DNA of 64,000 bases from an uncultured Clostridium sp. (GCA_947648765.1 CANSOY010000002.1:7364-71363); one strand, 5' to 3'; shown: positions 23,417 through 38,606, numbered from the stretch's first letter. Numbers and translations are program-made. Notes: a model not told the origin generated them from the letters alone.

Positions 23417-26032
23417 TTAGATATTATCTTGTCTTATGGTTTCAATAATGTTTTGCTTTTCAATCTTTTTTAACGAATAGTGCATAATACAACCAATCAG
23501 GATAAAGACGGCAAGTGCTGAGATAAGCGTTCCACTGGTTGGGAAGTTAAATCCTGAATCTACTCCTTCTGCAAAACTTTTGTAGAAAGCAAAGGAAAGT
23601 ACAATTCCAATTGGTACACCAATACATAAAGATTTTAGTCCATAGAATAGACTTTCTAGACGTATCATGCGCTTGAATTCTTTGCTAGTCATACCAATAG
23701 AGCGAAGCATTGCAAATTCTTTTTTGCGAAGGTTCATATTTGTTGTAATTGTGTTGAAGATATTGGTAACACCAATCAAAGAAATTACCGTCATAAAGCC
23801 ATATAGGAAAATGGCAACAACAAGCCACATTGCCTTTTCTTGGCGTACATTTTCTTCGACATTAAAAATGGAAATTCCACTATTCGAATATGCTTTTTCC
23901 AATTCTTCTTGCAAAGCATTTGCTTGTTTTGTCTGAATGTATAGCGAATTGCTTGCATTTGCCTGCCCTTGTGCTTCTAGCCATTCATCACTTACGACAA
24001 AATATGCCATTCCACTGGTTTGCCCTTCTTCTGACATAAACGGTTCTTGGGTTACTTTTACTACTTCCAATCCTACTTGTCTTTTCGCTTCTTCACGACC
24101 AAAAATACCAGTAATTTTGTCGCCCTCTTGGTAACCATATTCTCGTCCAAAATGGTAAACTCTTTTACCTTCTACGATTTTTGGAACAAGTACATTATCA
24201 TATAAAATTGCTTTATCTTTTGCTTGTTCATAAGTTAAGCCTAATTTTTTCAAATATCTTGCATATTCTTCTTTTCCAATCGACATGATACATAAATGTT
24301 CAGTTGCATCTTCGTCACTTGCATTGACTGCTTTCATGTTTTCTTCTCGTAATGCTCCATATTTTACCTCTTTGGCTGGAACTCGTAAATACACGCCACA
24401 AGTCAAACTTGCCCTTTCTACTTTCTCATTTTGAGCAATTTTTTGTAGTCTTTCTCTGACTTCTTTTCCTTGGTTTCCGTTTAGTACTAGGTTATAAGAA
24501 TAGGTTTTATAATAAACGGAGGAAGTTTTGAATGCATAGCCGATAAAGGACGACATCGCAATAAAGATAGCAACAGATACCACAATCGATACCACAGTTG
24601 TACGATATTTTTTCTTATTTCGTTTTAGTGTTTTATATGCAATTTCTCCACCTAAGCCAAATACCTTTTTAATCCATTTTGGCGATTTTACTTTTTTCCC
24701 TTTTATCTTAATCTCTCCGCTGTTACGAATTGCCTCAATCGGCGATACTTTGGCTGCTTTTTTAGCAGAGGAAATCGCAGATAAATAAATGGTAACACCT
24801 GCCAAAACGATTGCTAAAACATTTGCCATAATAGAGGTTGCAAACATAAATTGACTTTGGAATAACATATCTTGTAAAATCGCACCAACTACTTTGGTTA
24901 GTACAAATACAGCAAAATTTCCGCCTAATATACCGATTGGAATACCAATCATAGCAAGAATTCTTGCTTCATATAGTACATTTTTCTTAATTTGTTTTGA
25001 GGTCGCTCCAATCGAGGATAGCATGCCATATTGCTTCATTTTTTCGGTAATGGATATTGCAAAACTGTTACGAATACAGAAAACACTTGTTACAATAATA
25101 ATCACAATTACCACACTGCAAACCGAATACATCATGGTAAGTGTGGAGTCGTTCATCTCCAAATTCACCCAACCAAATAAACCACGATTTCGTTTTTAAT
25201 CAAATATTGCTTGATTTGATTGTTATAGTTATTTATAGGTAAAGAGTTCTCCAATTATCTCTTTTTTTATAAAATTTTAATTTAATACTACAATTTGCTC
25301 TGTTACTTCGTCTTGGTGTTTCATTCCTTTTTTGGTATAGCGTGTGTAAATATCTGCTTTCTCTCCCACTAAGTTTTCACGTTTACAAATGACACTATAA
25401 CCAGGTGCTACTCGTGGTTCTATGGTTGTACTTGGTCTTTCGATCACACCAACAATTTTGAAACTTTTAGTTTCTTTTTCGGTAAAGGTTTCTTCTCCTT
25501 TGTTATACGGCGAACTTTGCCCGAGGGTAAATTCTGAGTCATTTGGTCTTCTTTCGCCAAGTGCTAATGTTAGGGTTTGCCCCACCTCATATTTTATTTT
25601 TCCATTGGTTTCCATATGTTGACTTATCACAATTTCGTCTTCTTGTTCTGGCAAACGTCCTTCGATTAGATTGAGATTGGATTTTTCCATTCCTTTTTGA
25701 TCCATTGCAAGTAAGTAAAGAAATGGTTTGTCTTCATTTTGGCTTTCTTTGCATTTCGCATAGCCAAGTTTTTGCACGGTATAGTAACTTTCAATGTTAC
25801 GGTTTTCTTGAATATATTTCAAGTCCTCTTTTCGTACATCTAAAAAGGCATAGTGGTAATCTCCACCTGTTCTTTTCTCCTCTTGCATTAAGGTTGCACG
25901 AAAACTTTCAGCAAGTCCTGCCACACCTGTAATGAGAGAAGTAGCGAGAATAATTCCCATAATGGTAACAATCGTTCTTTTTTTATTGAGTTTCAAACTT
26001 TTGCTGGTTAACTGCTTCATTAAATTTTTCAA
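23417..26032 (-). pseudogene. MacB/FtsX-type dual-domain ABC permease, disrupted
   Basis: A 251-aa N-terminal piece (TM1 + periplasmic domain) and a 583-aa C-terminal piece (FtsX TM2-4 with the KQYGMLSSIGATSKQI motif, plus a second FtsX domain). They are separated by ~110 nt. Across that stretch the reading frame changes at least twice (LN* / ..KNEIVVYLVG* / VNLEMNDS..). Confidence 0.6.
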
Positions 26033-26035
26033 TTT

Positions 26036-26707
26036 CTACACCTCCCCAACAATTTTTCCATCCTCAATTTTAATCATACGGTCTGCTAATTTTGCAATTT
26101 CTAAGTTATGGGTTATCATAATAATGGTTTGGTGATATTTTTGGTTGGATAAACGTAGCAATTCCACAATTTCGTCACTTGACTTTGAGTCCAAGTTTCC
26201 AGTTGGCTCGTCTGCTAGTACGATTGCTGGTCGATTGATTAACGCTCTTCCAATGGAAACTCTTTGTTGTTGTCCACCCGATAATTCATTTGGCAAGTGT
26301 TTTCTTCGATTTTCCAATCCTAAGGTTTTTAGCAATTCTTCCATTCTTTCTTTTTCCACTGGCTTCCCATCTAAATCACAAGGAAGTGAAATATTTTCTT
26401 CCACATTGAGAATTGGTATCAAATTATAGAATTGATAAATCAGTCCAACTTGTCTTCTACGAAAGATGGCTAAGTTATCATCCGATAGTTTATAAATGTC
26501 TTTTCCTTCAATCATTACCTTTCCTTCGGTTGGGCGGTCCACTCCTCCTAGTAAATGAAGAAGGGTCGATTTTCCGCTTCCAGAACTTCCCACAATCGCA
26601 ATAAATTCTCCTTTTTCGACTGAAAAAGAAATGTCATTGACTGCCATTACGGTATTTTCTCCTTTTCCATATTGCTTTTTTAAGTGTTCTACTCTTAATA
26701 TTTCCAT
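26036..26707 (-). CDS. ABC transporter ATP-binding protein (MacB/LolD-like)
   Basis: Walker A GSSGSGKST, the LSGGQQQR signature, and ILADEPT Walker B. Start at MEILRVEHL with an AAGGAGG ribosome-binding site. Confidence 0.85.
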   Translation of the reverse strand: MEILRVEHLKKQYGKGENTVMAVNDISFSVEKGEFIAIVGSSGSGKSTLLHLLGGVDRPTEGKVMIEGKDIYKLSDDNLAIFRRRQVGLIYQFYNLIPILNVEENISLPCDLDGKPVEKERMEELLKTLGLENRRKHLPNELSGGQQQRVSIGRALINRPAIVLADEPTGNLDSKSSDEIVELLRLSNQKYHQTIIMITHNLEIAKLADRMIKIEDGKIVGEV

Positions 26708-26815
26708 TTGTTTTCCTCCTTTATTTACTTTCATTTTACCGAGGCAAAGTGACAATTCAGTGACTGTATAAAAAAAACATCTAATTTTTTGAAAAGTTAG
26801 ATGTTTTCCTGTTAT

Positions 26816-28030
26816 TTATCTCATGTATCTTATGATAAAGGTGGTTCCTTTTCCCTTTTCAGACGCTACCGTAATATCTCCATTTTGGTTTTCTAAAATG
26901 GTTTTGGATAGAGCAAGTCCAATACCAATACTATCTTCAGACGCATTTTCTGCTTTATAGAAACGGTCAAAAATATGCTTTTGGTCTTCTCTACTAATGC
27001 CTTCTCCTTCATCACGAATGGCAATCTTACGATAGGCAGTATTTTCCTCAATTGTTACCCAAATTTTCTTTCCACTTGGGGTATGTTCGATTGCATTTTT
27101 TAGCACATTTTGGATGGCTTCTTTGTTCCAGTTGTAATCGCCTGTAATACAGATGGCAGCATCTCCTTGCAACAAAATCTCGACTTCTTTAATTTCAATT
27201 AGGATTTCCAAATTTGCCAAAATATCTTCTAGCATAGCACGAAGTCCAATTTTTTCTTCTTTGAAGCGAACTGCTCCTGCATCTAGTTTGGATAATTTTA
27301 GTAGAGCAATAATGAGCCAGTGCATTCCTTTAATCTGGGAAGAGGCTTCTAGCAAGAAATGTTTTCTGGTTTCAGCATCCATATTTTCGGTTTCTTGCAA
27401 ATTATCTAACATAATTTGAATAGATGTTAATGGTGTTTTGAGTTGATGGGAAATGTCCGAGACAGAAGTGGCTAGTGCATTTCTTTGGAAATACGACTCT
27501 TCTGCTTGTTCTTTCAACATAACCGTGATTTTATACAACTCATTTTTGAGGCTGTTTAATTCATCCTCCGAATTTTCTTCAATCGCAAGGGAGTAGTCTT
27601 TTTTCTCCAGTTGCTTTAGATACGTGGTTAGTTCGTCTAATTTTTTTTGACGGTGTTTCAAATACAAAAAGAAATATACTAAGAAAGCAACTCCCATGCT
27701 TGCAATTAACCCAACAAGAGAAATGGTTCTATGGTTTTCTCGGTCTTCTAATTCTCGAATGGCAAATTCGTCTTGAATGCCATATTTCTCTAAAACTTGG
27801 TTTGTTTTGCTCAACTTTGGTTGATTGAGGATATGCAAAATCTCGCCTTCTTCTACCTCTGGATATTTTTCTTGGACAATGTCTAAAATACTCTCAATTG
27901 CTCGATTAACAATCTCTTGATTTTTCTGTTTTTGCACTTGCAAAATCGCCACACAGAAAACGCAAGCCGTTACAATCAGTATGCCAAAGAGAATTAAAAA
28001 TCTTTTTCCTTCTTTATTTTTTAGTCGCAT
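26816..28030 (-). CDS. Sensor histidine kinase (2 TM, ~75-aa extracellular loop)
   Basis: H-box SHQLKTPLTS and a HATPase_c G-box GIGLALSK. Confidence 0.8.
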   Translation of the reverse strand: MRLKNKEGKRFLILFGILIVTACVFCVAILQVQKQKNQEIVNRAIESILDIVQEKYPEVEEGEILHILNQPKLSKTNQVLEKYGIQDEFAIRELEDRENHRTISLVGLIASMGVAFLVYFFLYLKHRQKKLDELTTYLKQLEKKDYSLAIEENSEDELNSLKNELYKITVMLKEQAEESYFQRNALATSVSDISHQLKTPLTSIQIMLDNLQETENMDAETRKHFLLEASSQIKGMHWLIIALLKLSKLDAGAVRFKEEKIGLRAMLEDILANLEILIEIKEVEILLQGDAAICITGDYNWNKEAIQNVLKNAIEHTPSGKKIWVTIEENTAYRKIAIRDEGEGISREDQKHIFDRFYKAENASEDSIGIGLALSKTILENQNGDITVASEKGKGTTFIIRYMR

Positions 28031-28699
28031 TCTTCTTCTCCTACACGATAACCTAAACCTCGAACGGTTTGAATGATTTTCCCATCTGTATCTCCGATTT
28101 TTTCTCGAATTCTTTTAATGTATACGGTTAAGGTATTATCATTGACAAAGTTTCCAGCAATGTCCCAAATATCATTCAAAATTTCTTCTCTTGTAATCAG
28201 TCTTTTTTTGTTGCGAAATAGATTAACCAAAATTTTATATTCGAGTTTTGTTAGGGTAACTTCTTGTTTTTCTCGATACACTTTTCCAGGAACGAGATCA
28301 ATTCTCACTTTTCCGCATACTAATTCTTGAATTTCTTTTCCATTTCTTCTAAGAACTGCTTTAATTCTTGATACCAATTCTCGATTTCTAAATGGTTTGA
28401 TAATATAGTCTTCTGCTCCTAAATCAAAGCCCTCTACAACATCAGACTCTTCTTCTCTTGCTGTTAAGAAAATGACTGGTAGTTTATATTGTTCTTTGAT
28501 TGCCTTGCATAAATCTAGTCCGCTTCCATCTGGTAAAGAGATATCTAAAATGGCTAGGTCAAAAGTATCTTTTTCTAACTCTACCAATGCCTCTTTTTTC
28601 TTCCTGACAATGGCAAAGGAAAATCCCTCTTGTTGAAACAAGAACTCAATTCCCATAATGATTTTTTCATTATCTTCTACAAATAGTATTTTGCTCATT
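28021..28699 (-). CDS. OmpR-family response regulator
   Basis: Receiver domain (DLAILDISLPDGSG) and a winged-helix C-terminus. Start at MSKILFV with a GAGGAG ribosome-binding site. Confidence 0.85.
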
Positions 28700-28765
28700 T
28701 TTCTCTCCTCTTTTCCACCTATTATATCACGCTTGTGGAAAAAGGCAAGATGCACCAAATGGCAG

Positions 28766-28815
28766 ACAAAAAACAGTAATCACTAAACGCCTTGTTCTTC
28801 GATTACTGTTTTTGT
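28766..28815. terminator. Bidirectional terminator AAAAAACAGTAATC-...-GATTACTGTTTTTG
   Basis: 10-bp stem flanked by A6 and T5. It separates the island operon from the two-component-system operon. Confidence 0.55.
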
Positions 28816-29085
28816 CGTTATTTATCTATCCCTTGCTGTTGCTCTATAGTTTGGCTTCTCTTGATTTTCCCTATCATAGCATTTATTTCTTCATCATTTT
28901 TTCATTTTAACGGTTTCTAATCTTTTTTATTGAACCATTTTCTATCAGTGCATTCCATAAGTCATCCTCTTCAAAGTCATTATCTGGTTCAAAATGTTTT
29001 AAGAATACGTTTCGGTTCTTTCGTATTCATACATTTCAACTTGTAACAAGTATACTTCCTTTTTTTCTCCTTCTTTTTATGATTT

Positions 29086-30138
29086 CTATTTTCCTCTAAT
29101 CTCTAATATTTCTTTTTCGCTGAAACCACACAACTTTAATCCCTCGTCTGTAAACCAATCAAATGAACTGTGATATTCTTGCATTATTTTTTCATAAGCA
29201 CTGATAAATAATGTAATATCTATTTCGTTTTTTAGTAGACTACTAACTGCTTTTAATAATCTTTCGATACCGTTTAGATTACCCTCAAAATATTCCCAAC
29301 TATCATAATCAAAAACATTGTCATAAAGAATTTCATGATTGTCATTGATGATATAGCCGGGACCTTGCATATCCGAGCAATCAAAACTCCCCTTACTTAA
29401 TCTATCTTGAAACTGATCATTCCAAGTTATCAAATGGTCTAATACAAATGGAAATTTTTCATAGTTCAAAACATATCCTCCGGCAAAAGGGGTTTGGGAC
29501 GTAGCCATCAATAAATCCCCTTTCTGAAACGGTGTAGGTATATTCAAACAAATACCATGAATATCTAACCAATCATTTTTCATATCTTGTATATTTACCA
29601 TTTCCAATTTTCTATCTTCATTTAGCTTATATTCTGCCACAATATTATACTTACTATCTTTTGAAAACTCTCTCTTTCGAATTAAAAAACTAATGATTTC
29701 TTGTTCTTCATCTTCTTTTAATTCATTGTCTATCTCTTTTTGTATTTCCTGAAATGTTTTATACACATCTCGATATTCATCTTTTCCCGTTGTAATGATA
29801 TGTCCTACACTATTGCACCAGTAATTATAGGTATAAATTACATCTTGTTCTTCTTGCTCTAATTTTTCTTTTAGTTGTTTTATTCTTTTTATTTCTTCTT
29901 TTATCATTGCCTTTACACTGTCATAATGGTTACAGTTTATTCTCTCGATTACTTCCATATCTGGATAATTTTTTATTAGTTCTTCATATGCACTTATCTT
30001 TTCGTCTATATTCATTCTTTTATTCCTGTAAATCAAAACTGCCAATTCTTCTGTATTAAATTTATGTTTGATTTTTCTACAATGTTCACTAATTGCTTCT
30101 GAATTTACTAAGTTATATTCATCTATCATTCTTTTCAT
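29086..30138 (-). CDS. Hypothetical protein (350 aa), last gene of island operon
   Basis: Long ORF 4 nt after the upstream gene; no recognised domain; very AT-rich. Confidence 0.5.
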   Translation of the reverse strand: MKRMIDEYNLVNSEAISEHCRKIKHKFNTEELAVLIYRNKRMNIDEKISAYEELIKNYPDMEVIERINCNHYDSVKAMIKEEIKRIKQLKEKLEQEEQDVIYTYNYWCNSVGHIITTGKDEYRDVYKTFQEIQKEIDNELKEDEEQEIISFLIRKREFSKDSKYNIVAEYKLNEDRKLEMVNIQDMKNDWLDIHGICLNIPTPFQKGDLLMATSQTPFAGGYVLNYEKFPFVLDHLITWNDQFQDRLSKGSFDCSDMQGPGYIINDNHEILYDNVFDYDSWEYFEGNLNGIERLLKAVSSLLKNEIDITLFISAYEKIMQEYHSSFDWFTDEGLKLCGFSEKEILEIRGK

Positions 30139-30142
30139 TCTC

Positions 30143-31024
30143 CTACTTTTTATTGGTTTCGATTTTCATAACTTCCCATTTTCGATTCAATGTTACTTTA
30201 CAATACGCATATTCATCCGAAAAATAATGTTTTTCTATTATGATTTGGATCTCTTGATATTGACTTGGATATTTGAGTGGTGGTTCTTTTCTTAATGCTT
30301 CTATTGTTTCTTCAATTGTCATATAACCATTTCTGTTGAAAAGATTAAGCCCATCTTCTAGAAAACATATTCGATAAAAATAGACTGCATTAGGAGTAGC
30401 TGCAAAATTCTCCTCTAGCATCTCATTGTTATTTTTCATGAACTCTTTTACGGCTCTTTCTTCCCTTGTCAATTCTATTTTATTGGTTCGTTCTGTTTTT
30501 CGATTGGAAAGATATTGATCGGAAGCAAGTTCAAATTCTGCGTCTATAATCGCTGTTTCAAAAGTCATATCCATCATTAAACAAATTGTATCTTCTGTCA
30601 TTTTTTTACGAATATATCGCTCTGTATTGGGTGTACCGACATCTGTATATTTGTAAAAAACATAATATCTATCATATTGCTCTAACGCTTTGTCTAATAA
30701 ATAGATATCTTGAATTGCTATTTGTTTTCTATTGTCTATCAATTCTGTAATCGTTTCTCTTTCTTCTATTGGTATTCGGTCATGTGGATCATAATCATAT
30801 TCTAATCGCTTATTATCACAATATGCTTTGTCTAATTCTAAGCGAAACTTTAGCACACCCTTTTCCTTATAACGACTATCCATTAAAATCGTATCGATTT
30901 CAAATTTTTTGATTGCTTTTCTTTCTATGATTGCTGTATCTAAGTTTGAGAACCCTAATCCTAACTGTTCAAACTTCTTGCTTTTTAGTAGATCTTTCCT
31001 TACTTTTTTTATTCCATAACTCAT
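30143..31024 (-). CDS. Hypothetical protein (~293 aa)
   Basis: ORF with an AAAGGATGG ribosome-binding site; start set at MSYGIKK; no recognised domain. Confidence 0.5.
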   Translation of the reverse strand: MSYGIKKVRKDLLKSKKFEQLGLGFSNLDTAIIERKAIKKFEIDTILMDSRYKEKGVLKFRLELDKAYCDNKRLEYDYDPHDRIPIEERETITELIDNRKQIAIQDIYLLDKALEQYDRYYVFYKYTDVGTPNTERYIRKKMTEDTICLMMDMTFETAIIDAEFELASDQYLSNRKTERTNKIELTREERAVKEFMKNNNEMLEENFAATPNAVYFYRICFLEDGLNLFNRNGYMTIEETIEALRKEPPLKYPSQYQEIQIIIEKHYFSDEYAYCKVTLNRKWEVMKIETNKK

Positions 31025-31039
31025 TTTCAATCCATCCTT

Positions 31040-32143
31040 TCACATGGCAAATACTACATTTTTTATATCTTGTGGCATGATTGTATATAAGTCATCACTG
31101 CCGTTTTCTTTGATTCGTACAGCTTGTTCAAATTTTATCTTCTCGACTAGATTTCGTACCAAATGTGCGTTTTCAAAATTTTCTTTGTTTTGTTTTACTT
31201 CGTTTTCCAAATACTTCAGCACAATTTCTTTACAGCCTTTCTCCAATTCTAGAAAATCTTCTTTTCGTTGTTTTGAAAATATTTCATATAGTTCTTCTAC
31301 CGTATAGTCTGGGAAGTCCATAAAAAATTGGATTCTATTTTTGAAACTTGGGGTTGCGTTCATCAGTTTTTCCATTTCTTCTGGATAATCTGCTAATATC
31401 ACACACAAATCTTCTCGATCGTTTTCCATTTCTTTCATCAATGTTTCGATCCATTCATAGCCATTTGTTCCTTGGACTAGCGAATATGCTTTATCAATAA
31501 ACAATACTCCACCGATTGCTTGTTGTATCACTTTTCTTGTTTTTGCTGCTGTATCTCCTACATATTCGCCAATAAAATCTTCTCGCCCCACTTCTACGAA
31601 AATTCTTTGCGTACTTAATACTCCATTTTCTGCAAAGATATCACTGATTATTCTTGCCGCTGTTGATTTCCCTGTACCAGGATTTCCACGCATACACATA
31701 TGTAGCATCGTTCTTCCTTGTCCGCCTCGCATTCCATCTACTTCCACATAACTCAATATTTTCCTGATTTGTTCTTTTACCTCTTTTAACCCAATTAGAG
31801 AGTTTAATTGGTGTAATCCATATTCAGATTTTGTATCTGCTTTTGGCTTCTCCCAGTTGAACAAGATATCCTCTAAATCAAAACAATCTGTGTTGATTTC
31901 TTGTAATTTTTGTTTATTTGCTTTCACACAGGCTCTAATCAGTGTTTTGTCTATCTCTATCATCGATTTTTCTGCAATCGAGTTTATCATCCAATCTTCT
32001 AACTTTATTTTTAATCCATTTTGTTTTGCTACATTTTTTATATATTGGATTTTTTCTTCCTGTGTAGGCTCTATTATCTTTAGTTCCCAATAAAAGTTTC
32101 TTTGTAACATTTCTCGTATGTCGTTTTTATCTTTTTTTTCCAT
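31040..32143 (-). CDS. AAA+ ATPase, SpoVK/CbbX family
   Basis: LIGLKEVKEQIRKI...GNPGTGKSTAARI (Walker A), VLFIDKAY (Walker B), and an arginine finger (PSFKNRIQ). The pattern aligns with SpoVK. Confidence 0.7.
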   Translation of the reverse strand: MEKKDKNDIREMLQRNFYWELKIIEPTQEEKIQYIKNVAKQNGLKIKLEDWMINSIAEKSMIEIDKTLIRACVKANKQKLQEINTDCFDLEDILFNWEKPKADTKSEYGLHQLNSLIGLKEVKEQIRKILSYVEVDGMRGGQGRTMLHMCMRGNPGTGKSTAARIISDIFAENGVLSTQRIFVEVGREDFIGEYVGDTAAKTRKVIQQAIGGVLFIDKAYSLVQGTNGYEWIETLMKEMENDREDLCVILADYPEEMEKLMNATPSFKNRIQFFMDFPDYTVEELYEIFSKQRKEDFLELEKGCKEIVLKYLENEVKQNKENFENAHLVRNLVEKIKFEQAVRIKENGSDDLYTIMPQDIKNVVFAM

Positions 32144-32176
32144 TAAATTTTCTTATTTTAGAATAACAAAAAATAT

Positions 32177-32569
32177 TCAGTCCCAATTTTTATGTATAAT
32201 TGCTTCTAATTTTCTATCGATGTTATTTTCATCATCTATCACATAAAGTTTCTTTTTCTCAAATTCCGTATTTTCTAGAGTATGTAAATCCGTAATAACG
32301 GTTATTCTGTCCTCTTCTATCATATTTTCTTTTCGCAGTATTTTGCGAATTATCTCTACTTCTTTTGCATAGTCTTTCGAATGGTTATCGCAGAATAGTA
32401 TGATATTATGATTTCCGATATTTATCTTGTTTGCCCTTTTGAGCCTAATATATTCCACATATTCTTCTAGTTCCTTTCTAAAAAAAGTTAGACCATAACA
32501 TTTGTCTAAACTTTTTAGAATATCTTCCGTTGTTTCTTCTTTCCTACTTTGTTTTTCTAAATTTTCCAT
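32177..32569 (-). CDS. Small hypothetical protein (130 aa), predicted alpha/beta
   Basis: Start at MENLEK with an AAGGGA ribosome-binding site. Alternating hydrophobic strands (NIILFCDNH, ITVITDL, KLYVIDDE). Confidence 0.45.
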   Translation of the reverse strand: MENLEKQSRKEETTEDILKSLDKCYGLTFFRKELEEYVEYIRLKRANKINIGNHNIILFCDNHSKDYAKEVEIIRKILRKENMIEEDRITVITDLHTLENTEFEKKKLYVIDDENNIDRKLEAIIHKNWD

Positions 32570-32692
32570 TCTAATTCCCTTCACAACCAAAAATCCTATC
32601 TACATTGTTAGTATATAGGATTTTTAAGTCTTTGTAAATTTTGTTGGTCATATAATGTATTGACTTGATGTCTAGAAAATTCTAAACATTCG

Positions 32693-33790
32693 TTATATTT
32701 GATAGAATTGGTCTAATTTTTTTCTACTCCAGAAGAAATTATTATGAATGAAAAAATCATATAATTTTCCTCGTTCTATTATTTTTATAATGCTATCTAA
32801 ACCTTCCTTTTTTATACGAATAGTCGCTTCCTTTTCTTCTATTTTATCTTCACTATATTGATTGCTACCAGAAAATAGATATATTTTATGATAAATCTTT
32901 TTCTGGGCATCTTCTACATATTTTGAATAATCTACAATCGCACGATTTTTTACTTGGCAAGTAATGATCTTAGGTTTCTCATTATCTTTCAAACACTTTT
33001 CTACTAGGTCAAATTCGTATTTCATTTTGTTTACTTTGCATTCTGATGGCAACAGTATATAATTATTCTCCTTTTCCTGTTTTAAGATATATAAATAAAC
33101 TAAGTCCTCTAAATCTCTGTAGTTCAAGGTATCTGTAAATGTTTCAAGTGTTAATTTTGTTTTTGGAAATTCAAAGTTTTCGTGTAAACCCTCTAAATAT
33201 TTCTGTTTATATAAATGATATATGTTTTCTTTTACCATATTCGTTTCAATACGGTCGATTGCACTATGTATTCTTTGTGAAAATCTTCCTACAATATTTT
33301 GTGGTAATTCATATTCGGAAAATTCATACCACTCTTTAACTGAACCATACCAACTTAGTCTAGGAATATTCAAGTCATTTGTTGCATATTCCCCCTCATT
33401 TAGTATATCTTTGCCATCACAATATCGAACTCCATTATTATCAACTACTCCTATATAATAATGTGCATTTTTTAGTCGCATAATTACGATGTCATTTTCT
33501 TGTATATTACTATAATTTTTTAGGCTTTTATGTGAAATCCCTGCCCCATCATATATGCTATTGTAATCTTTCTCATATTCAGCCGCTACCTTATCCGTCA
33601 AAATCTCATTTTTGTATTTTTTTCTAAAATCTTCTGAATTATGATGCCACCCCATTCCAAAGATTCCTTTTTGGATACAATTATTTTGATATTCTTCTAC
33701 AAATTCTTCGTTTCTATACTTCTTATCAAAAGGCATTAAATAGATAATCCAAAAGTTTTTTATCTCACCTTTTTCGATTATTTTATTCAT
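32693..33790 (-). CDS. Hypothetical protein: possible N-terminal EVE/PUA-like domain and C-terminal PD-(D/E)xK-like motif
   Basis: GGGAGG ribosome-binding site before MNKIIEKG. N-terminus: IFGMGW...ENDIVIMRLKNAHYYIGVV. C-terminus: YEFDLV...KIITCQVK, a D...QxK pattern. The domain assignment is inference. Confidence 0.5.
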   Translation of the reverse strand: MNKIIEKGEIKNFWIIYLMPFDKKYRNEEFVEEYQNNCIQKGIFGMGWHHNSEDFRKKYKNEILTDKVAAEYEKDYNSIYDGAGISHKSLKNYSNIQENDIVIMRLKNAHYYIGVVDNNGVRYCDGKDILNEGEYATNDLNIPRLSWYGSVKEWYEFSEYELPQNIVGRFSQRIHSAIDRIETNMVKENIYHLYKQKYLEGLHENFEFPKTKLTLETFTDTLNYRDLEDLVYLYILKQEKENNYILLPSECKVNKMKYEFDLVEKCLKDNEKPKIITCQVKNRAIVDYSKYVEDAQKKIYHKIYLFSGSNQYSEDKIEEKEATIRIKKEGLDSIIKIIERGKLYDFFIHNNFFWSRKKLDQFYQI

Positions 33791-33812
33791 TTTATAACCT
33801 CCCATCTATCTA

Positions 33813-35294
33813 CTACTTCTTAACTATCTCTTTCAGCTTTTCCCATATTTTAACCATTGCATAAGTATCTAATTTGCAATAAACTAAAAGTCCTTGTCTT
33901 ATTTCTTCTTGCTCCTCTTTTGTTTTCTGTGCAAGTGTTGCAAATACATTCATTGCTTCTCCGCCATTGTGTACCAATGGTAAATTATGATAATCCAGTT
34001 CTGGGTCATCTGGAAATAATGCTGGCAAAACATATTTAATTGAATAAGAACCTTGCATTTCTTTGCAATAATACATTCGACTTGCAAAAGGAACCATTAA
34101 GTCTTTTATATTGTTATGTATTATCCATAAGTCTTCTCTTAAATCTGCATATAATTCTGCTAGATTTTTGATTACCATTTTTTCGAATTGCATATTATAT
34201 GCTAAAACACAAGCATTTTTTTGGATATCTTTTACTAATCGCTCAGCCAGTTTTCTTCTTGGGTCAATTCCTGCCTCTGCTAGAAATTCTTTATGTTTGA
34301 GTTCTCCGCCTTCCTTTTCTATATAATGCAACGAATATTGAAAAGGTATTTGCATATATGGTCTTATTCCATCATATTGGGGAATTGGCTGTTGGAATGT
34401 TTCAAAATCCAAGAAATATAATGGATAATATAAATTTTTTAGAAAAGTTCTAATCTTTTCTTTGTCCATTATCGGTTCTTTATTAAATTCTTCAAATTCC
34501 ACTTGTTGCTTAGATTTCCAGTCTATCTCTTGCTTTAATAAATCTTTGAATTCATAAATGCCTTTATGATATAATTTCAATTTTTGGTCTTTTCTCATTC
34601 TTCTAATTTTGAACACATTGTTTTCCGGTAATTTTCTGGTACAATAATTCCAGTATTCACAATTATATGGAGCAAAACAATGCTTTCCGATGTCTTGTGT
34701 TGGTTCACTTTCTTGTTCCATATATTGATGAATTTCTTTAATTTTTTCTTTGATTTCCTCTTGCTTTGAAAGGGCAATTTCAGTTACATCTTCGATACGA
34801 AGTAACTTGTCTAATTCTAGTTCTCCCTTTCTTATATATTGATTGTTAATATACACGATACTTGCTTTCTTTACTTGATATCCTAAATTGAGAAGTATAT
34901 ACACTTGATAGGAAATATCGTCCAAATAAATATCGCTTATTGAAGTAGAACTTTTTACCTCATAGATTTCTACGCCATTTACATCATTTTTTAGAATATC
35001 TACACTACAGAAATTTTGGTCATACGCAAAGGAGGCTTCTGTAATAATATTAGGCTTTTTTTCCATTTGTTGCTTGGTTTGTTCTATCATTTTTGATAAA
35101 TCACTTTGATATTCAATATTACTGTATTCTCCAAGTAGTTCTCTCGCAAGTTCTCCCACTTCTGTTCCATTCTCCAAAACAGCCTCACTTGCTGTTTGTT
35201 CAGCACATTCTGGTTTATATTGATTTAACCATAATATTTTATTACATTGTTTCGCTTTGCAGTATTTCGATTTCGATAAGTGTACCTTGTCCAT
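33813..35294 (-). CDS. Cas4-like PD-(D/E)xK nuclease fused to a DEDD-like exonuclease (DUF2779-like architecture)
   Basis: N-terminal Cys (KYCKAKQC) and nuclease motifs (VDIL ... IYEVK ... YQVY). Three C-proximal Cys (CFAPYNCEYWNYC) suggest an Fe-S cluster. The C-terminal half has LYFLDFETF (a DxE exonuclease motif). Strong ribosome-binding site. Confidence 0.6.
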   Translation of the reverse strand: MDKVHLSKSKYCKAKQCNKILWLNQYKPECAEQTASEAVLENGTEVGELARELLGEYSNIEYQSDLSKMIEQTKQQMEKKPNIITEASFAYDQNFCSVDILKNDVNGVEIYEVKSSTSISDIYLDDISYQVYILLNLGYQVKKASIVYINNQYIRKGELELDKLLRIEDVTEIALSKQEEIKEKIKEIHQYMEQESEPTQDIGKHCFAPYNCEYWNYCTRKLPENNVFKIRRMRKDQKLKLYHKGIYEFKDLLKQEIDWKSKQQVEFEEFNKEPIMDKEKIRTFLKNLYYPLYFLDFETFQQPIPQYDGIRPYMQIPFQYSLHYIEKEGGELKHKEFLAEAGIDPRRKLAERLVKDIQKNACVLAYNMQFEKMVIKNLAELYADLREDLWIIHNNIKDLMVPFASRMYYCKEMQGSYSIKYVLPALFPDDPELDYHNLPLVHNGGEAMNVFATLAQKTKEEQEEIRQGLLVYCKLDTYAMVKIWEKLKEIVKK

Positions 35295-35421
35295 ATAATC
35301 CCTCTCTTTTTGATTATTTTATCAAATATTCTACCCTAATTCCACTATTTTGGTCATAAAACGCTTTTTAACCTATTTAATAGTATCATTTTGTGCCTTG
35401 CCTAGTATAGAAACCTAATAT

Positions 35422-35946
35422 CTATAAATTTTCACTCATCTCACTTACTACTTTATGTATTTTTTCTTGTTGACTCAGTATATCATTATAATTTAATGCT
35501 TGAAAACTATATTCTTTTATTACATTTAGTTTCAGATATTTAACAAATCCTCTAATTGAATGGTGCAACTCTTCTTTCGTTCCATTTTCATTTCCGCCAC
35601 CAACATAGATAAATATAACCTTCTTATTCGCTAATAGTCCACTTTTATATAATGGATGCAATCGGTCCATAAAATTTTTGAATAGCCCACTTACATTATC
35701 AAAATAATTAGGCACCCCAAAGATAATTAAGTCAGAAGCAATCATCTTTTCTATAATTTCTTTCATATCATCCTTGATTACACAATCTATCATTTTATGA
35801 CATGCTAAACAGCCTTTACAGTATTCTATGTTTTTATCTTTTAATAATAGCATTTGTGTATTCTGCCTATTTTTATCAATTATTTCTAATATGGATTGCG
35901 TATTTCCTTTTCGGTTACTTCCAGATATAAGTAATATATTCTTCAT
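35422..35946 (-). CDS. Flavodoxin-like / NAD(P)H-dependent FMN reductase family protein
   Basis: ILLISGSNRKGNT N-terminus and a flavodoxin-like fold with C..C pairs (iron-sulfur-flavoprotein-like). Confidence 0.7.
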   Translation of the reverse strand: MKNILLISGSNRKGNTQSILEIIDKNRQNTQMLLLKDKNIEYCKGCLACHKMIDCVIKDDMKEIIEKMIASDLIIFGVPNYFDNVSGLFKNFMDRLHPLYKSGLLANKKVIFIYVGGGNENGTKEELHHSIRGFVKYLKLNVIKEYSFQALNYNDILSQQEKIHKVVSEMSENL

Positions 35947-36017
35947 TTTCTATTCTCCCTATCCTATAAATAAAAAAATGCTCTTATCGGTTTAAAATCC
36001 TCTAAGAACACTTTTCT

Positions 36018-36104
36018 TGGTGCAGATAGTGGGAGTCGAACCCACACGGATGTTACTCCGCTGGATTTTGAGTCCAGTGCGTCTGCCAATTCCGCCACAT
36101 CTGC
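36018..36104 (-). tRNA. tRNA-Leu (anticodon CAA)
   Basis: Cloverleaf read by eye. Acceptor stem GCAGATG/CATCTGC, anticodon loop CUCAAAA, a long variable arm, T-arm GTGGGTTCGACTCCCAC, and encoded CCA. Confidence 0.85.
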
Positions 36105-36156
36105 ATAATTTACTCTCCTATCTTATCACAAAATAGACAGGAGAGCAAGTTTTTTC

Positions 36157-38487
36157 TTATCTTTTTTCATCTGCTTCATATTCTGTAATGTGAAGTTTTG
36201 CAAAAACTAATTCTTTCTTATCATTTTCATACGAATAGCCAACTTCTTTTTGCTCTTGTTCAAAGAAATCAAATTTATCAAAATCCACTAACATTTCTGT
36301 CGATAAATCCATTCCGACTGGTAACGTATTGTTGGTATTATCAAAAAAGATAATATTGGAATAGAAAATTACAGGCATTTTTTCTTTCAAGTTAATGCGA
36401 TACAATTTGCAAGTTTCGCCTTTGTTTTTGCACATGTTAATCGCATCTTGTGGATTTAAGAAACATACATGAATTCCTTTTGGTTCTTCTTCATCTGGTG
36501 CTAATAAATACACAGATAAATCCACTGGCAAAGTAATCTTTTGAAAAGACTCATGCAATAAATTTACAAAATCACGTAAACGGTCTTTGTAAAATTCAAA
36601 TTCCGTATCTGGACGAATGTTCAAAATCTGAAAGCGATTTTTTGGTGTTTCGCGATGTTGTGTGTTGCGAATGGTTTGCATTTTCGTCTTATCTTGGTAG
36701 GCTCCTCCAAAGATATCAAAATCCGCTGCTGCAATTTCTTTTTCGTTTTCTTTGTAGGCTTTTTTCATTTCTTTTAGTTCGTCTTCTAATTTTGCCTTAT
36801 CTGCTTTTAAGATACGTTTGCGATTAACTGCATTCATAGACTCTTCGCAATATCTTGCTACATAAATTGCATCCGTTTCGTCTTTGGAAAACTTTCTTCT
36901 TTGCAATTCGTCAATTTGAACGCCTAAGTCTTCTAAATCTGTTTCATAATCAAAATATTTTTTGATATGTTCTTTTCGCTCGCCATTTTTGTCTTCTTCT
37001 TCACCTTCATTTAGGCTCATAGCAACATCTTTATTCGTATATTTCCAAAATTCTAATAAACTCTTGCGATGGCTTTCAATTTCTTGTAAGTACATCGTTG
37101 CATTTTTGATTTTTTGCGTTAAAATTTCAGCTCGATTTTTTGATGCTTTCAAATCTAGTTTATTATTCTTTAATTCCGTTCTTTTTTTGTTGAGTATGGT
37201 ACAAAAAGCAATTAAATCCTCGATGGTATAATTCTTGTCTTCAATTTTAATCACTTCTTCTTTTTCCTCTTGAACGGCTTTTTCCGTTGCACCTTCTGCT
37301 TCTTTTTCTTGCTTTTTCAAATCGAGCACTTGGTTCATTTTATTTTTATTGCTTTTGCTCTTGAAGAAATACTTTACTTTTCCAAAGAATGTTTTTTTAC
37401 ATTCAATAAAGGCTAGAATTTGTTGCTCTTTTACGGCATATTCTTCACTTCGTTTTGCCACGATTTCTTTTTGCCCTGCTAATTCTTTTTTCACGCCATC
37501 ACATTCTAAGCGAATACGATTAACGGTGCTATTGATATGTAAAATCTGTTCAGTGATAAACTTTGGCAATGTCTTATGGTTGAGTTCGTCTTCTTCGCAA
37601 TAGAATTGCAAATTTCCTTGCTTGTTTAATTGATAGGTAAATTGATAATCTTCTTTCAATTCGCTTCCAATGATAAACAGTGCTTTCATGAGTTTATATA
37701 ACTCTTGTGCCTCTTTTTCGGTTTGTAGTACAATCGCATAGGTACTTTTTACTTTTTCATATACTGGTGCTTGCCCTACAATGCGAATGGTCCTTTTGCC
37801 TTTTTTATCATAAACCTCATAAATTTCTGGCCATTCTTTGGTAAAGAACCAGTAATAGTTTTGAAGATCTGCAATTTGGTCATTGGTAAGCATTTCTCCC
37901 GAAAATTCTTCATAATTAACCGGTGCATATAAGTATTGTTTCTTCTTTGTCTTGCTCATTTCAATTTGCTTTTTAATCACATACCACATAGCTGAATTGT
38001 CTGACTCTTTGGAGGAAACCAGCATAAAGTATTTTCCGATTGCATTGGAATAGAAAATCTGCCAAGCAAAATTATCGATATATTTTACTTTGGTTGGTAC
38101 TTCTTCTTGAAATTTTTCTTGCTCTTGTTCAATTTCTTGAATATGAGCAATATTGATGTTCATAACCATTTTCAAAAAGGCTGCGTGTTTTTCCAAATTT
38201 TCTTCACTGGAACTATCTAAGTATTCGCAAATTGGACTTGCCATTTTATATCGCTTTTGAATTTCCGCTAATCTTTCCACTGGTGAAATCATAATTTCAA
38301 TTTCACTCATATCAATATAGCGGTACACATGATATTTTTCCGCATCATATGATTTTGGTGCACGAAATTTAGGCGCCTCGAATTCTTTTAAGAACTTTGG
38401 TGGTCTTTCTAACTTTAATCCAATATATTCTAAGTTTGTTTTTACATGATCTTTTTCGTCGCTTCTTTTCTTAGGCATTTTTTTCAC
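36157..38487 (-). CDS. Large hypothetical protein (776 aa) with central coiled-coil
   Basis: Long ORF with a GGTG ribosome-binding site and an E/K-rich central region; no recognised catalytic motif. Confidence 0.6.
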   Translation of the reverse strand: MKKMPKKRSDEKDHVKTNLEYIGLKLERPPKFLKEFEAPKFRAPKSYDAEKYHVYRYIDMSEIEIMISPVERLAEIQKRYKMASPICEYLDSSSEENLEKHAAFLKMVMNINIAHIQEIEQEQEKFQEEVPTKVKYIDNFAWQIFYSNAIGKYFMLVSSKESDNSAMWYVIKKQIEMSKTKKKQYLYAPVNYEEFSGEMLTNDQIADLQNYYWFFTKEWPEIYEVYDKKGKRTIRIVGQAPVYEKVKSTYAIVLQTEKEAQELYKLMKALFIIGSELKEDYQFTYQLNKQGNLQFYCEEDELNHKTLPKFITEQILHINSTVNRIRLECDGVKKELAGQKEIVAKRSEEYAVKEQQILAFIECKKTFFGKVKYFFKSKSNKNKMNQVLDLKKQEKEAEGATEKAVQEEKEEVIKIEDKNYTIEDLIAFCTILNKKRTELKNNKLDLKASKNRAEILTQKIKNATMYLQEIESHRKSLLEFWKYTNKDVAMSLNEGEEEDKNGERKEHIKKYFDYETDLEDLGVQIDELQRRKFSKDETDAIYVARYCEESMNAVNRKRILKADKAKLEDELKEMKKAYKENEKEIAAADFDIFGGAYQDKTKMQTIRNTQHRETPKNRFQILNIRPDTEFEFYKDRLRDFVNLLHESFQKITLPVDLSVYLLAPDEEEPKGIHVCFLNPQDAINMCKNKGETCKLYRINLKEKMPVIFYSNIIFFDNTNNTLPVGMDLSTEMLVDFDKFDFFEQEQKEVGYSYENDKKELVFAKLHITEYEADEKR

Positions 38488-38606
38488 CTCTTATGTTTCC
38501 TATTATATACTAAAACCTATCTTTTTTTCAAGGCTTGTCCTTACGGATTTAAGAAAAAAGACACGAATTCGCCTAAAACTCGTATCTTTTTTCTCTAAAT
38601 TTTTTT

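Follow-up and report, generated by a model that had tools for sequence, protein, structure and literature searches.

A candidate defence-island-type gene block in an uncultured Clostridium sp., read as a partly eroded copy of a cluster recurring in gut Clostridia

What kind of locus is the low-GC block of minus-strand genes lying near a tRNA-Leu(CAA) gene in an uncultured Clostridium sp.? The sequence studied, hereafter the window, is a 64,000-nucleotide (nt) stretch of this organism (GCA_947648765.1 CANSOY010000002.1:7364-71363), and an earlier note on it had described positions 29086 to 36104 as one operon of six genes, a candidate defence system unlike any named one. We give roughly even chances to a different reading, in which the block is a composite, defence-island-type locus, a partly eroded copy of a gene cluster recurrent in gut Clostridia, and not one six-gene system.

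Six minus-strand open reading frames (ORFs) were found in tight spacing where the earlier note had placed them, at 33813-35294, 32693-33805, 32177-32590, 31040-32143, 30143-31030, and 29086-30138. They make up five genes, as ORFs 3 and 4 belong to a single gene. The features of the locus, with protein lengths in amino acids (aa), are as follows.

36018-36104, minus strand: tRNA-Leu(CAA) gene (ARAGORN, Rfam); population integration site at its 3' end, outside the gene cluster
35422-35946, minus strand: gene for an NADPH-dependent flavin mononucleotide (FMN) reductase or flavodoxin-like protein (PF03358, E = 4e-24), between the tRNA gene and G1
33813-35294, minus strand: G1, DUF2779 protein, 493 aa (PF11074, Cas_Cas4, PADLOC Cas4)
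32693-33805, minus strand: G2, probable type IV restriction-endonuclease-like protein, 370 aa (PADLOC PDC-S02, AlphaFold2 (AF2) model); variable slot 1
32589-32625, minus strand: terminator-like hairpin with a U-run (-17.7 kcal/mol, z = -5.2, 0 of 200 shuffles as stable)
31040-32590, minus strand: AAA+ ATPase gene (509 aa in relatives), present in the window as two ORFs, 32177-32590 and 31040-32143
32139-32201: patch of 8 window-private G:C>T:A substitutions, which creates both stops that split the ATPase gene
30143-31030, minus strand: G5, orphan protein, 295 aa (293 aa as called elsewhere), without database matches
29086-30138, minus strand: G6, 350 aa, new domain family, fused to PolC-like or DnaB_C-like proteins in relatives
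28766-28815, no strand assigned: inverted repeat, intrinsic-terminator-like hairpin, at the 3' end of the AAA+-G5-G6 unit

A scan of species-representative genomes from the G6 side returned 76 loci, all in uncultured Clostridia or other gut metagenome-assembled genomes (MAGs) of Bacillota, and a scan of metagenomes from the ATPase side, made with a subclade alignment of the ATPase N-terminal domain (the full-width alignment being too divergent), returned 38 loci. Loci and contigs are cited below by their L numbers. Many of the ATPase-side loci held genes for a DUF2779 protein, a WYL regulator, and the ATPase without G6, polymerase, or helicase genes, and for this reason the DUF2779-WYL-AAA+ triad is taken as the conserved core and the G6-type genes as optional cargo. 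The three triad genes were directly adjacent in L117 and L120 (809-5209 in the latter), and a single gene lay between nuclease and WYL in L106, L108, and L109; G6 was lacking from all five loci.

Across about 115 related loci, the arrangement was that of the triad core with two variable slots, slot 1 between the DUF2779 nuclease and the WYL gene, and slot 2 between the WYL gene and the ATPase gene or after the latter. Slot 2 often contained G6-domain proteins, many of them fused to exonuclease-less PolC-like or to DnaB_C-like proteins. Slot 1, which accommodates defence-type nucleases, contained members of the G2 family (24-39% identity), PDDEXK_4 proteins with weak PDC-S26 matches, or other genes, and a dGTPase gene matching a PADLOC defence model (5e-56) was found near it in relatives. 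The WYL gene of the relatives encodes a winged helix-turn-helix (wHTH)-WYL regulator of ~330 aa, which matches PADLOC WYL models and lies beside variable nuclease genes, upstream of the ATPase gene. Co-occurrence counts were made for the 35 G6 loci flanked on either side by 6 kb or more, and WYL was present in 22, the AAA+ ATPase in 21, DUF2779 in 16, a DnaB_C-like gene in 15, and a PolC-like gene in 12. As a check, it had been proposed to ask whether the DUF2779, ATPase, and two further genes co-occur, and they form no such set: G2 is swappable, G5 occurs in one narrow lineage, and G6 is optional.

The possibility that all six (properly five) genes act together as one new multi-component anti-phage system was examined against the same loci. 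The tight spacing on one strand, the two predicted nucleases combined with an ATPase, and the low GC content are what such a system might show, and every contig of the species had these five genes in one order, as did the close relatives L016-L018 and L033 with a WYL gene added. In relatives, however, G2 is replaced by unrelated genes, G5 is confined to its lineage, and G6 is missing from most triads and from L100 and L101, in which G5, the ATPase, and a DnaB_C fragment are kept. Moreover, a change in the Walker B motif and the loss of WYL in the window (both described below) suggest that selection does not fully constrain the ATPase part. The block is also divided by the hairpin at 32589-32625. 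A promoter-like site at 32638-32610 (10/12 in a promoter scan) overlaps this hairpin, and in relatives the WYL gene occupies its position. As a significant hairpin with a U-run and an overlapping promoter-like site lie between G2 and the ATPase gene, the block probably comprises two transcription units, G1-G2 and AAA+-G5-G6, and the single operon proposed earlier has become doubtful. The terminator proposed downstream was supported, since a fold of -20.2 kcal/mol (z = -3.65 vs shuffles) was obtained for the inverted repeat at 28766-28815. We therefore regard a single five-gene system as unlikely.

Searches of PADLOC-DB v2 retrieved no named system with two or more genes of the block matched, and the same result was obtained for the intact cluster of L043 (2325-12945). 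The statement that the block is no named anti-phage system thus stood for the gene set, and needed amendment for G2, which matches the PADLOC 'candidate' family PDC-S02.

G6, the optional cargo that led to most of these loci, was stand-alone in 44 of them. It followed a PolC-like core (PHP, palm, and fingers) in 16, a fingers-only piece in 12, and a DnaB C-terminal domain in three. The PolC-like core fused to G6 is without exonuclease or C-terminal domains; its motifs are of PolC type (RVELxxHTKMS, EPDIDLNFS, LYKFDILGHD) and mostly intact, some copies having degenerate catalytic motifs (PDISLN, KLEILSSD), and the DnaB_C-like proteins keep the Walker A motif. The label 'DnaE' for the G6-linked polymerase was rejected on account of these PolC-type motifs. 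A PolC-like::G6 fusion of ~1112 aa (L043 7691-11029), a DnaB_C::G6 fusion of ~650 aa (L041 406-2352), and a DnaB_C::PolC-like fusion of 1055 aa in one Acutalibacteraceae MAG (L088 12748-15915) are Rosetta-stone links between the truncated helicase, the truncated polymerase, and the G6 domain. Small ORFs were also seen among the cargo, including one with an FtsZ/tubulin GTPase domain only (~200 aa, L052 12068-12694), one with a DnaJ C-terminal domain only (~130 aa, L084 1477-1863), and one for a GIY-YIG nuclease (L076 6419-7051). A Y-family polymerase gene (IMS domain) with a 139-aa partner was found in L100 and L101 (16349-17833), ~6 kb downstream of the window-like cluster.

The G6 protein was modelled with confidence as a helical N-terminal domain, an alpha/beta middle domain, an SH3/Tudor-like barrel, and a helical C-terminus, and this predicted fold as a whole has no match among solved structures. 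Against PADLOC, only a 34-residue match was obtained. No homologues were retrieved from 50,697 phage records (INPHARED), 72,556 plasmids (PLSDB), 2.9 million IMG/VR contigs, or BFVD. The fusions with DnaB and Pol III proteins had raised the idea that G6 is an intein or homing element in dnaB or dnaE; it was discarded, as G6 lacks both Hint and endonuclease domains, follows complete domains instead of interrupting them, and has no C-extein behind it.

G5 is a lineage-restricted orphan. It had no match in Pfam, NCBIfam, PADLOC, PHROG, or PDB, and its family comprised 52 clusters, all at least 56% identical, with six representatives among 1.84 billion proteins. Its N-terminal domain is resembled (34% identity) by a stand-alone protein of ~170-187 aa encoded between the WYL and ATPase genes (L100 6646-7209), and a 168-aa protein occupies the same position in L033 (6072-6578). 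By this resemblance, G5 may derive from a small cargo protein that gained a second domain. G5 and the G6 middle domain are joined by a weak profile link (E = 0.017). In relatives, a 291-aa protein encoded upstream of DnaB_C has C-terminal motifs in common with G6; G5 was considered as a diverged copy of this protein and the idea was dropped (hhalign probability 0.2%). PDB sequence and profile searches with G1, G2, G5, and G6 yielded nothing significant.

The ATPase gene is interrupted in the window and not in its closest relatives. Eighteen near-identical contigs were compared (L001-L010 and L092-L099), ten reached via the exact G6 protein, which is present on contigs in 235 blocks of the public index, and eight via the flanking response regulator. 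In all 18, the '137-aa' and '367-aa' ORFs form a single ORF of 509 aa. Compared with nine near-identical contigs, the window had 33 private substitutions over 16 kb (the other contigs had 1-6 private changes each over the same stretch), and all 33 were located in three dense patches (25162-25287, 32139-32201, and 37553-37597), the first two changing mostly to A/T and the third entirely to C. Eight of them fall within the 63 nt of the second patch; all are G:C>T:A, and they give TGA and TAA stops. The patches are probably either a sequence or assembly artefact or a rare local mutational event or localised hypermutation, and the split is no feature of the ATPase gene itself. The patch at 25162-25287 similarly splits an FtsX permease gene, which reads as 251 + 583 aa in the window and 867 aa in relatives.

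The 130-aa alpha/beta protein that had been listed as a gene of its own is in fact the start of a degenerate first AAA+ domain of this 509-aa ATPase. The N-terminal half aligns to the AAA+ domain of the C-terminal half (hhalign probability 79.5%, E = 1.5e-5), and GNYNIIIRN replaces the Walker A motif in it. Placement in the SpoVK/CbbX/EccA clade was upheld (CbbX 3zuh, E = 1e-42; EccA1, 1e-34), and the likeness lies in the second domain, which has a Walker A motif (GNPGTGKS) and an AAA_lid_6 lid (PF00004 and PF17866). The window ATPase differs from this clade in the extra degenerate N-terminal AAA+ copy, in DK for DE in the Walker B motif, and in scores below the cutoffs of the NCBIfam equivalogs for spore_V_K (TIGR02881, the best match, 224.9 vs 422.95 bits), CbbX (TIGR02880, 189 vs 459 bits), and EccA (TIGR03922, 173 vs 467 bits). 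No Rubisco or ESX genes were found in the window region or the related loci, and the PADLOC matches of the ATPase were generic (IetA, mad8, and TRIP13, 1e-6 to 1e-3).

A sporulation operon with the ATPase as SpoVK orthologue had been offered as an alternative to defence. The best NCBIfam match is indeed spore_V_K, and spoIIID, yabG-like, and sipL genes adjoin one related cluster (L015). However, this match is far below its cutoff and the CbbX and EccA models score similarly, the degenerate extra domain is lacking in SpoVK (a single AAA+ domain, ~320 aa), and the genes that constantly accompany the ATPase encode a WYL regulator and a nuclease instead of sporulation proteins. With both the score and the tandem-domain architecture against it, we consider the sporulation alternative very improbable.

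The Walker B change affects the catalytic glutamate, which is lysine (GGVLFIDKAY, region 31430-31460) in the window and ten near-identical contigs. The glutamate was present in every other-species homologue of the ATPase subfamily in which the motif was found, including homologues that are 75% identical. From the sequence, this substitution is expected to block ATP hydrolysis.

The two nuclease genes were characterized by profiles, invariant residues, and models. G1 had been described as a Cas4-like Fe-S PD-(D/E)xK nuclease joined to a DEDD-type exonuclease, and profiles, residues, and literature agreed. It scored 159.1 bits with PF11074 (gathering cutoff 23.3), 23.2 bits with Cas_Cas4 (22.7), and E = 7e-11 with the PADLOC Cas4 model; against the NCBIfam UU173 family it scored 56.5 bits, below the cutoff of 225. 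Residues C11, C16, C205, C211, C217, D98, E111, and K113, and D295, E297, N366, E370, Y471, and D475 in the exonuclease part, were invariant among 13 homologues. The architecture is thus predicted to be an N-terminal Cas4-like nuclease followed by a C-terminal DEDD(y) 3'-5' exonuclease of RNase-H fold. In the literature, DUF2779 is described as combining a Cas4-like domain with a 3'-5' exonuclease of RNase-H fold, and as quasi-essential in JCVI-syn3.0. G1 shares the two-domain architecture and catalytic residues with MMSYN1_0389 of JCVI-syn3.0 ('solo-Cas4 plus DEDDh', RNase-H-like clade F.17), including a tyrosine in place of the DEDDh histidine in both. G1 has all four Cas4 cysteines, in contrast to two in the Mycoplasma protein, and its linkage to WYL and AAA+ ATPase genes was not found described for DUF2779 in the literature searched.

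For the second ORF, an EVE/PUA-like N-terminus and a D...QxK C-terminus had been proposed, and both the reader fold and the PD-(D/E)xK core were recovered. G2 matches PADLOC PDC-S02 (PDLC04816, E = 4.5e-28, 96.6 bits, residues 37-356) and has no match in Pfam. Its AF2 model (predicted local distance difference test score, pLDDT, 87.7) is closest in fold to MspJI, AspBHI, the EVE/PUA protein PH1033, VcaM4I, YTH domains, and McrB-N, and E263 and Q283-x-K285 are invariant. Because of the PDC-S02 match and the modelled fold near MspJI, AspBHI, and EVE enzymes, G2 is a probable type IV (modification-dependent) restriction-endonuclease-like protein with an EVE/YTH-like reader and an Mrr/MspJI-like PD-(D/E)xK nuclease, of the same reader-plus-nuclease type as MspJI, AspBHI, EVE-HNH enzymes such as VcaM4I, and PDC-S02. 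No methyltransferase domain was found in any ORF from 26000 to 39000. Two contigs of the window species with an identical response regulator (L094 and L095) carry divergent alleles of both G2 (365 aa, or 59 + 326 aa) and G6 (347 aa), which suggests allele replacement by recombination inside the block.

Between species, the ratio of non-synonymous to synonymous substitution rates (dN/dS) was 0.09-0.25 for G1, AAA+, G5, and G6 (0.10 for G1 and 0.23-0.25 for G5), and the genes are therefore real and evolve under purifying selection. Measured against L033, the nearest other species, the DUF2779, ATPase, and G5-G6 genes are 80-86% identical in nucleotide sequence and the slot-1 gene is 24% identical in amino acids; the slot-1 allele is thus swapped between close relatives. 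Within the species, polymorphic codons were non-synonymous and synonymous in a ratio of 29:14 in the block vs 5:31 in the flanks (p = 1.4e-6), with 9:1 in the ATPase and 0:1 in G6, which stays strongly conserved in the window species. No remnants of the WYL gene, the 168-aa gene, or DnaB_C were detected in the window (best WYL tblastn E = 0.95), and it thus has no adjacent wHTH-WYL regulator, the hallmark of a WYL-regulated defence island. Because WYL is lost, the Walker B motif is changed, and non-synonymous polymorphism is in excess, the window copy is read as partly eroded.

Descent from a mobile element (e.g., its replication/partition module) that had integrated at tRNA-Leu and later shed its integrase would also account for a low-GC block near a tRNA gene. 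The tRNA-Leu(CAA) gene was confirmed on the minus strand at 36018-36104 (ARAGORN; Rfam, 57.4 bits) and was the only non-coding RNA found by Rfam for the block. The block is the lowest-GC stretch of 6.2 kb in the window, as the earlier note had sensed, with corrected values of 30.2% (27.6-33.3% per gene) instead of ~25% for the block and 35.4% instead of 35-38% for both flanks; the whole window has 34.6%. On one contig (L001 1-4120), a relaxase-bearing insert of at least 4 kb has its junction at the exact 3' end of tRNA-Leu(CAA) (window ~36023), and the tRNA is therefore a live integration site. Some relatives hold DnaB_C, PolC-like, tubulin/FtsZ-like, and GIY-YIG genes, some G6 copies lie beside integrases, methylases, and HEPN genes, and the ATPase matches phrog_4339. 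However, the L001 insert sits between the tRNA and the FMN-reductase gene, so that the block lies outside that element. The reported absence of integrase and transposase was confirmed, as Pfam found no such domain in the ORFs of the block, and no long direct repeats around the block, att-type repeats, or repeat of the tRNA end were found. Neither an integrase, a repeat of the tRNA 3' end, nor variable presence, as expected of a tRNA-integrated island, was thus observed. The phage, plasmid, and IMG/VR sets were also devoid of G6 homologues, as noted above. The genomic context of the cluster varies by species and adjacency to a tRNA is not general, most related clusters having none nearby, and the FMN-reductase gene is not beside the cluster in other species except for one weak case (L085). 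An origin as a mobile-element leftover is, in our view, improbable.

On the other side of the tRNA, between it and thrS, the window encodes a Lys/Glu-rich protein of 776 aa (773 as called elsewhere; 36157-38487, minus strand), whose only family match is a sub-threshold one to a bacterial PH domain; within the species this protein is conserved and varies very little at non-synonymous sites.

The evidence leads back to the composite, defence-island-type reading, under which we infer the following division of labour. The core of the recurrent cluster would be the DUF2779 dual nuclease, the WYL regulator, and the tandem AAA+ protein with a dead first and an active CbbX-type second domain. G2, in slot 1, would most likely work alone as a type IV enzyme, its EVE-like pocket reading a modified base and its Mrr/MspJI-like PD-(D/E)xK domain cutting the DNA after recognition. 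The resulting or other DNA ends could then be trimmed by G1, 5'-3' by the Cas4-like domain and 3'-5' by the DEDD domain. The ATPase-G5-G6 unit would be the remainder of slot 2 after the WYL and DnaB-like genes had gone, with G6 probably acting as a docking or adaptor protein. WYL regulators are known defence-island partners and single-stranded DNA (ssDNA) sensors (PMC9122601, PMC11662680). The WYL gene of the relatives, beside variable nucleases and upstream of the ATPase, is in the arrangement typical of BrxR/CapW WYL-regulated defence islands; the window differs in having no WYL gene, and DUF2779, the tandem AAA+, and the G6 fusions are not genes of BREX, CBASS, or any listed system.

The earlier idea of a fixed defence-island-type insertion was thus retained in part, with the G2 slot of relatives holding PDC-S02, PDC-S26-like, and dGTPase genes near WYL, and with the position of the block unchanged across the 22 contigs read for the species. 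Several points weigh against the composite defence reading. Such fixation is unusual, as defence islands are usually strain-variable. The anti-phage role is a prediction for all of these families, and PDC-S02 has the status of a 'candidate' in PADLOC. The excess of non-synonymous polymorphism fits diversifying selection as well as decay, and the two cannot be separated; the stops may be an assembly artefact, so that the missing WYL gene and the altered Walker B motif would be the main signs of erosion. In a minimal Mycoplasma, one DUF2779 homologue is quasi-essential, as would suit a housekeeping part in DNA metabolism, and the slot-2 cargo consists of replication-type proteins that fit repair or replication equally.

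These last points are shared with the main rival, a DNA-damage response or repair module of which the window is a reduced version with a restriction gene inserted beside it. In this module, WYL would sense ssDNA like PafBC and CapW and induce the DUF2779 protein as an end-processing nuclease and the AAA+ protein as a remodeller, and in full versions a G6-tethered pair of DnaB_C-like and exonuclease-less PolC-like proteins would perform damage-tolerant synthesis or replication restart. The mostly intact PolC-type motifs, the intact DnaB Walker A, the DnaB_C::PolC-like fusion of L088, and a DEDD exonuclease supplied separately by G1 are consistent with such a role. So are the quasi-essential DUF2779 protein of JCVI-syn3.0, the control of damage responses by WYL regulators (PMC10693628, PMC12392091), and the Y-family polymerase gene 6 kb off in L100 and L101. 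The chromosomal location of the cluster, with G6 absent from the phage, plasmid, and IMG/VR collections, and its constant site in the species contigs point in the same direction. However, the polymerase and helicase genes are optional and missing from many triads, some PolC-like copies have degenerate catalytic motifs, and the adjoining slots are filled with PADLOC-type defence genes. Furthermore, the context is non-syntenic between species, some MAGs have more than one G6 locus, and non-synonymous polymorphism is in excess. We regard the repair module as a tenable but less probable explanation.

For the full cluster of the relatives, a functional analogy can be drawn with the ImuA'-ImuB-DnaE2 mutasome, in which a RecA-fold ATPase without the usual N-terminal part, a non-catalytic hub, and a polymerase of the Pol III alpha family are likewise encoded together under damage-type regulation. 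The cluster differs in having a PolC-like protein instead of DnaE2 and DnaB_C instead of ImuA, with no Y-family ImuB in the cluster, and the window contains none of the mutasome-analogous genes (DnaB_C and PolC-like).

A bolder reading, which we hold to be rather doubtful, is that the triad with G6 cargo serves gut Clostridia as a hitherto undescribed machine for immunity or damage surveillance, with the AAA+-G5-G6 unit of the window as its relic. In its immune form, the exonuclease-less PolC core and the DnaB C-terminal ATPase without its N-domain would serve as baits or poisons for phage takeover of replication, alongside the FtsZ-like and DnaJ_C-like pieces, the PolC-like and DnaB_C-like proteins often being tethered to G6. 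Complexes tagged by G6 would be remodelled by the CbbX-type AAA+ protein, with the dual nuclease as effector of the response. Literature searches on DUF2779, PDC-S02, WYL with DnaB and PolC, SpoVK with anti-phage, and solo-Cas4 with WYL returned no description of the triad, the cluster, or G6.

The window copy itself is modest, a probable type IV enzyme of an unvalidated PADLOC candidate family with an eroded ATPase module. Its main value is as a lead to a recurrent triad of Cas4/DEDD nuclease, WYL regulator, and tandem AAA+ ATPase with two cargo slots in abundant uncultured gut Clostridia, and to G6, a confidently modelled domain of ~340 aa with no match to its overall fold among solved structures and repeatedly fused to cut-down PolC and DnaB. 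An immune role for the triad would mean a new defence use of replisome look-alikes, and a repair role would mean a new auxiliary replisome of Firmicutes under WYL control. In both cases the DUF2779 family, quasi-essential in JCVI-syn3.0, would gain its first functional context.

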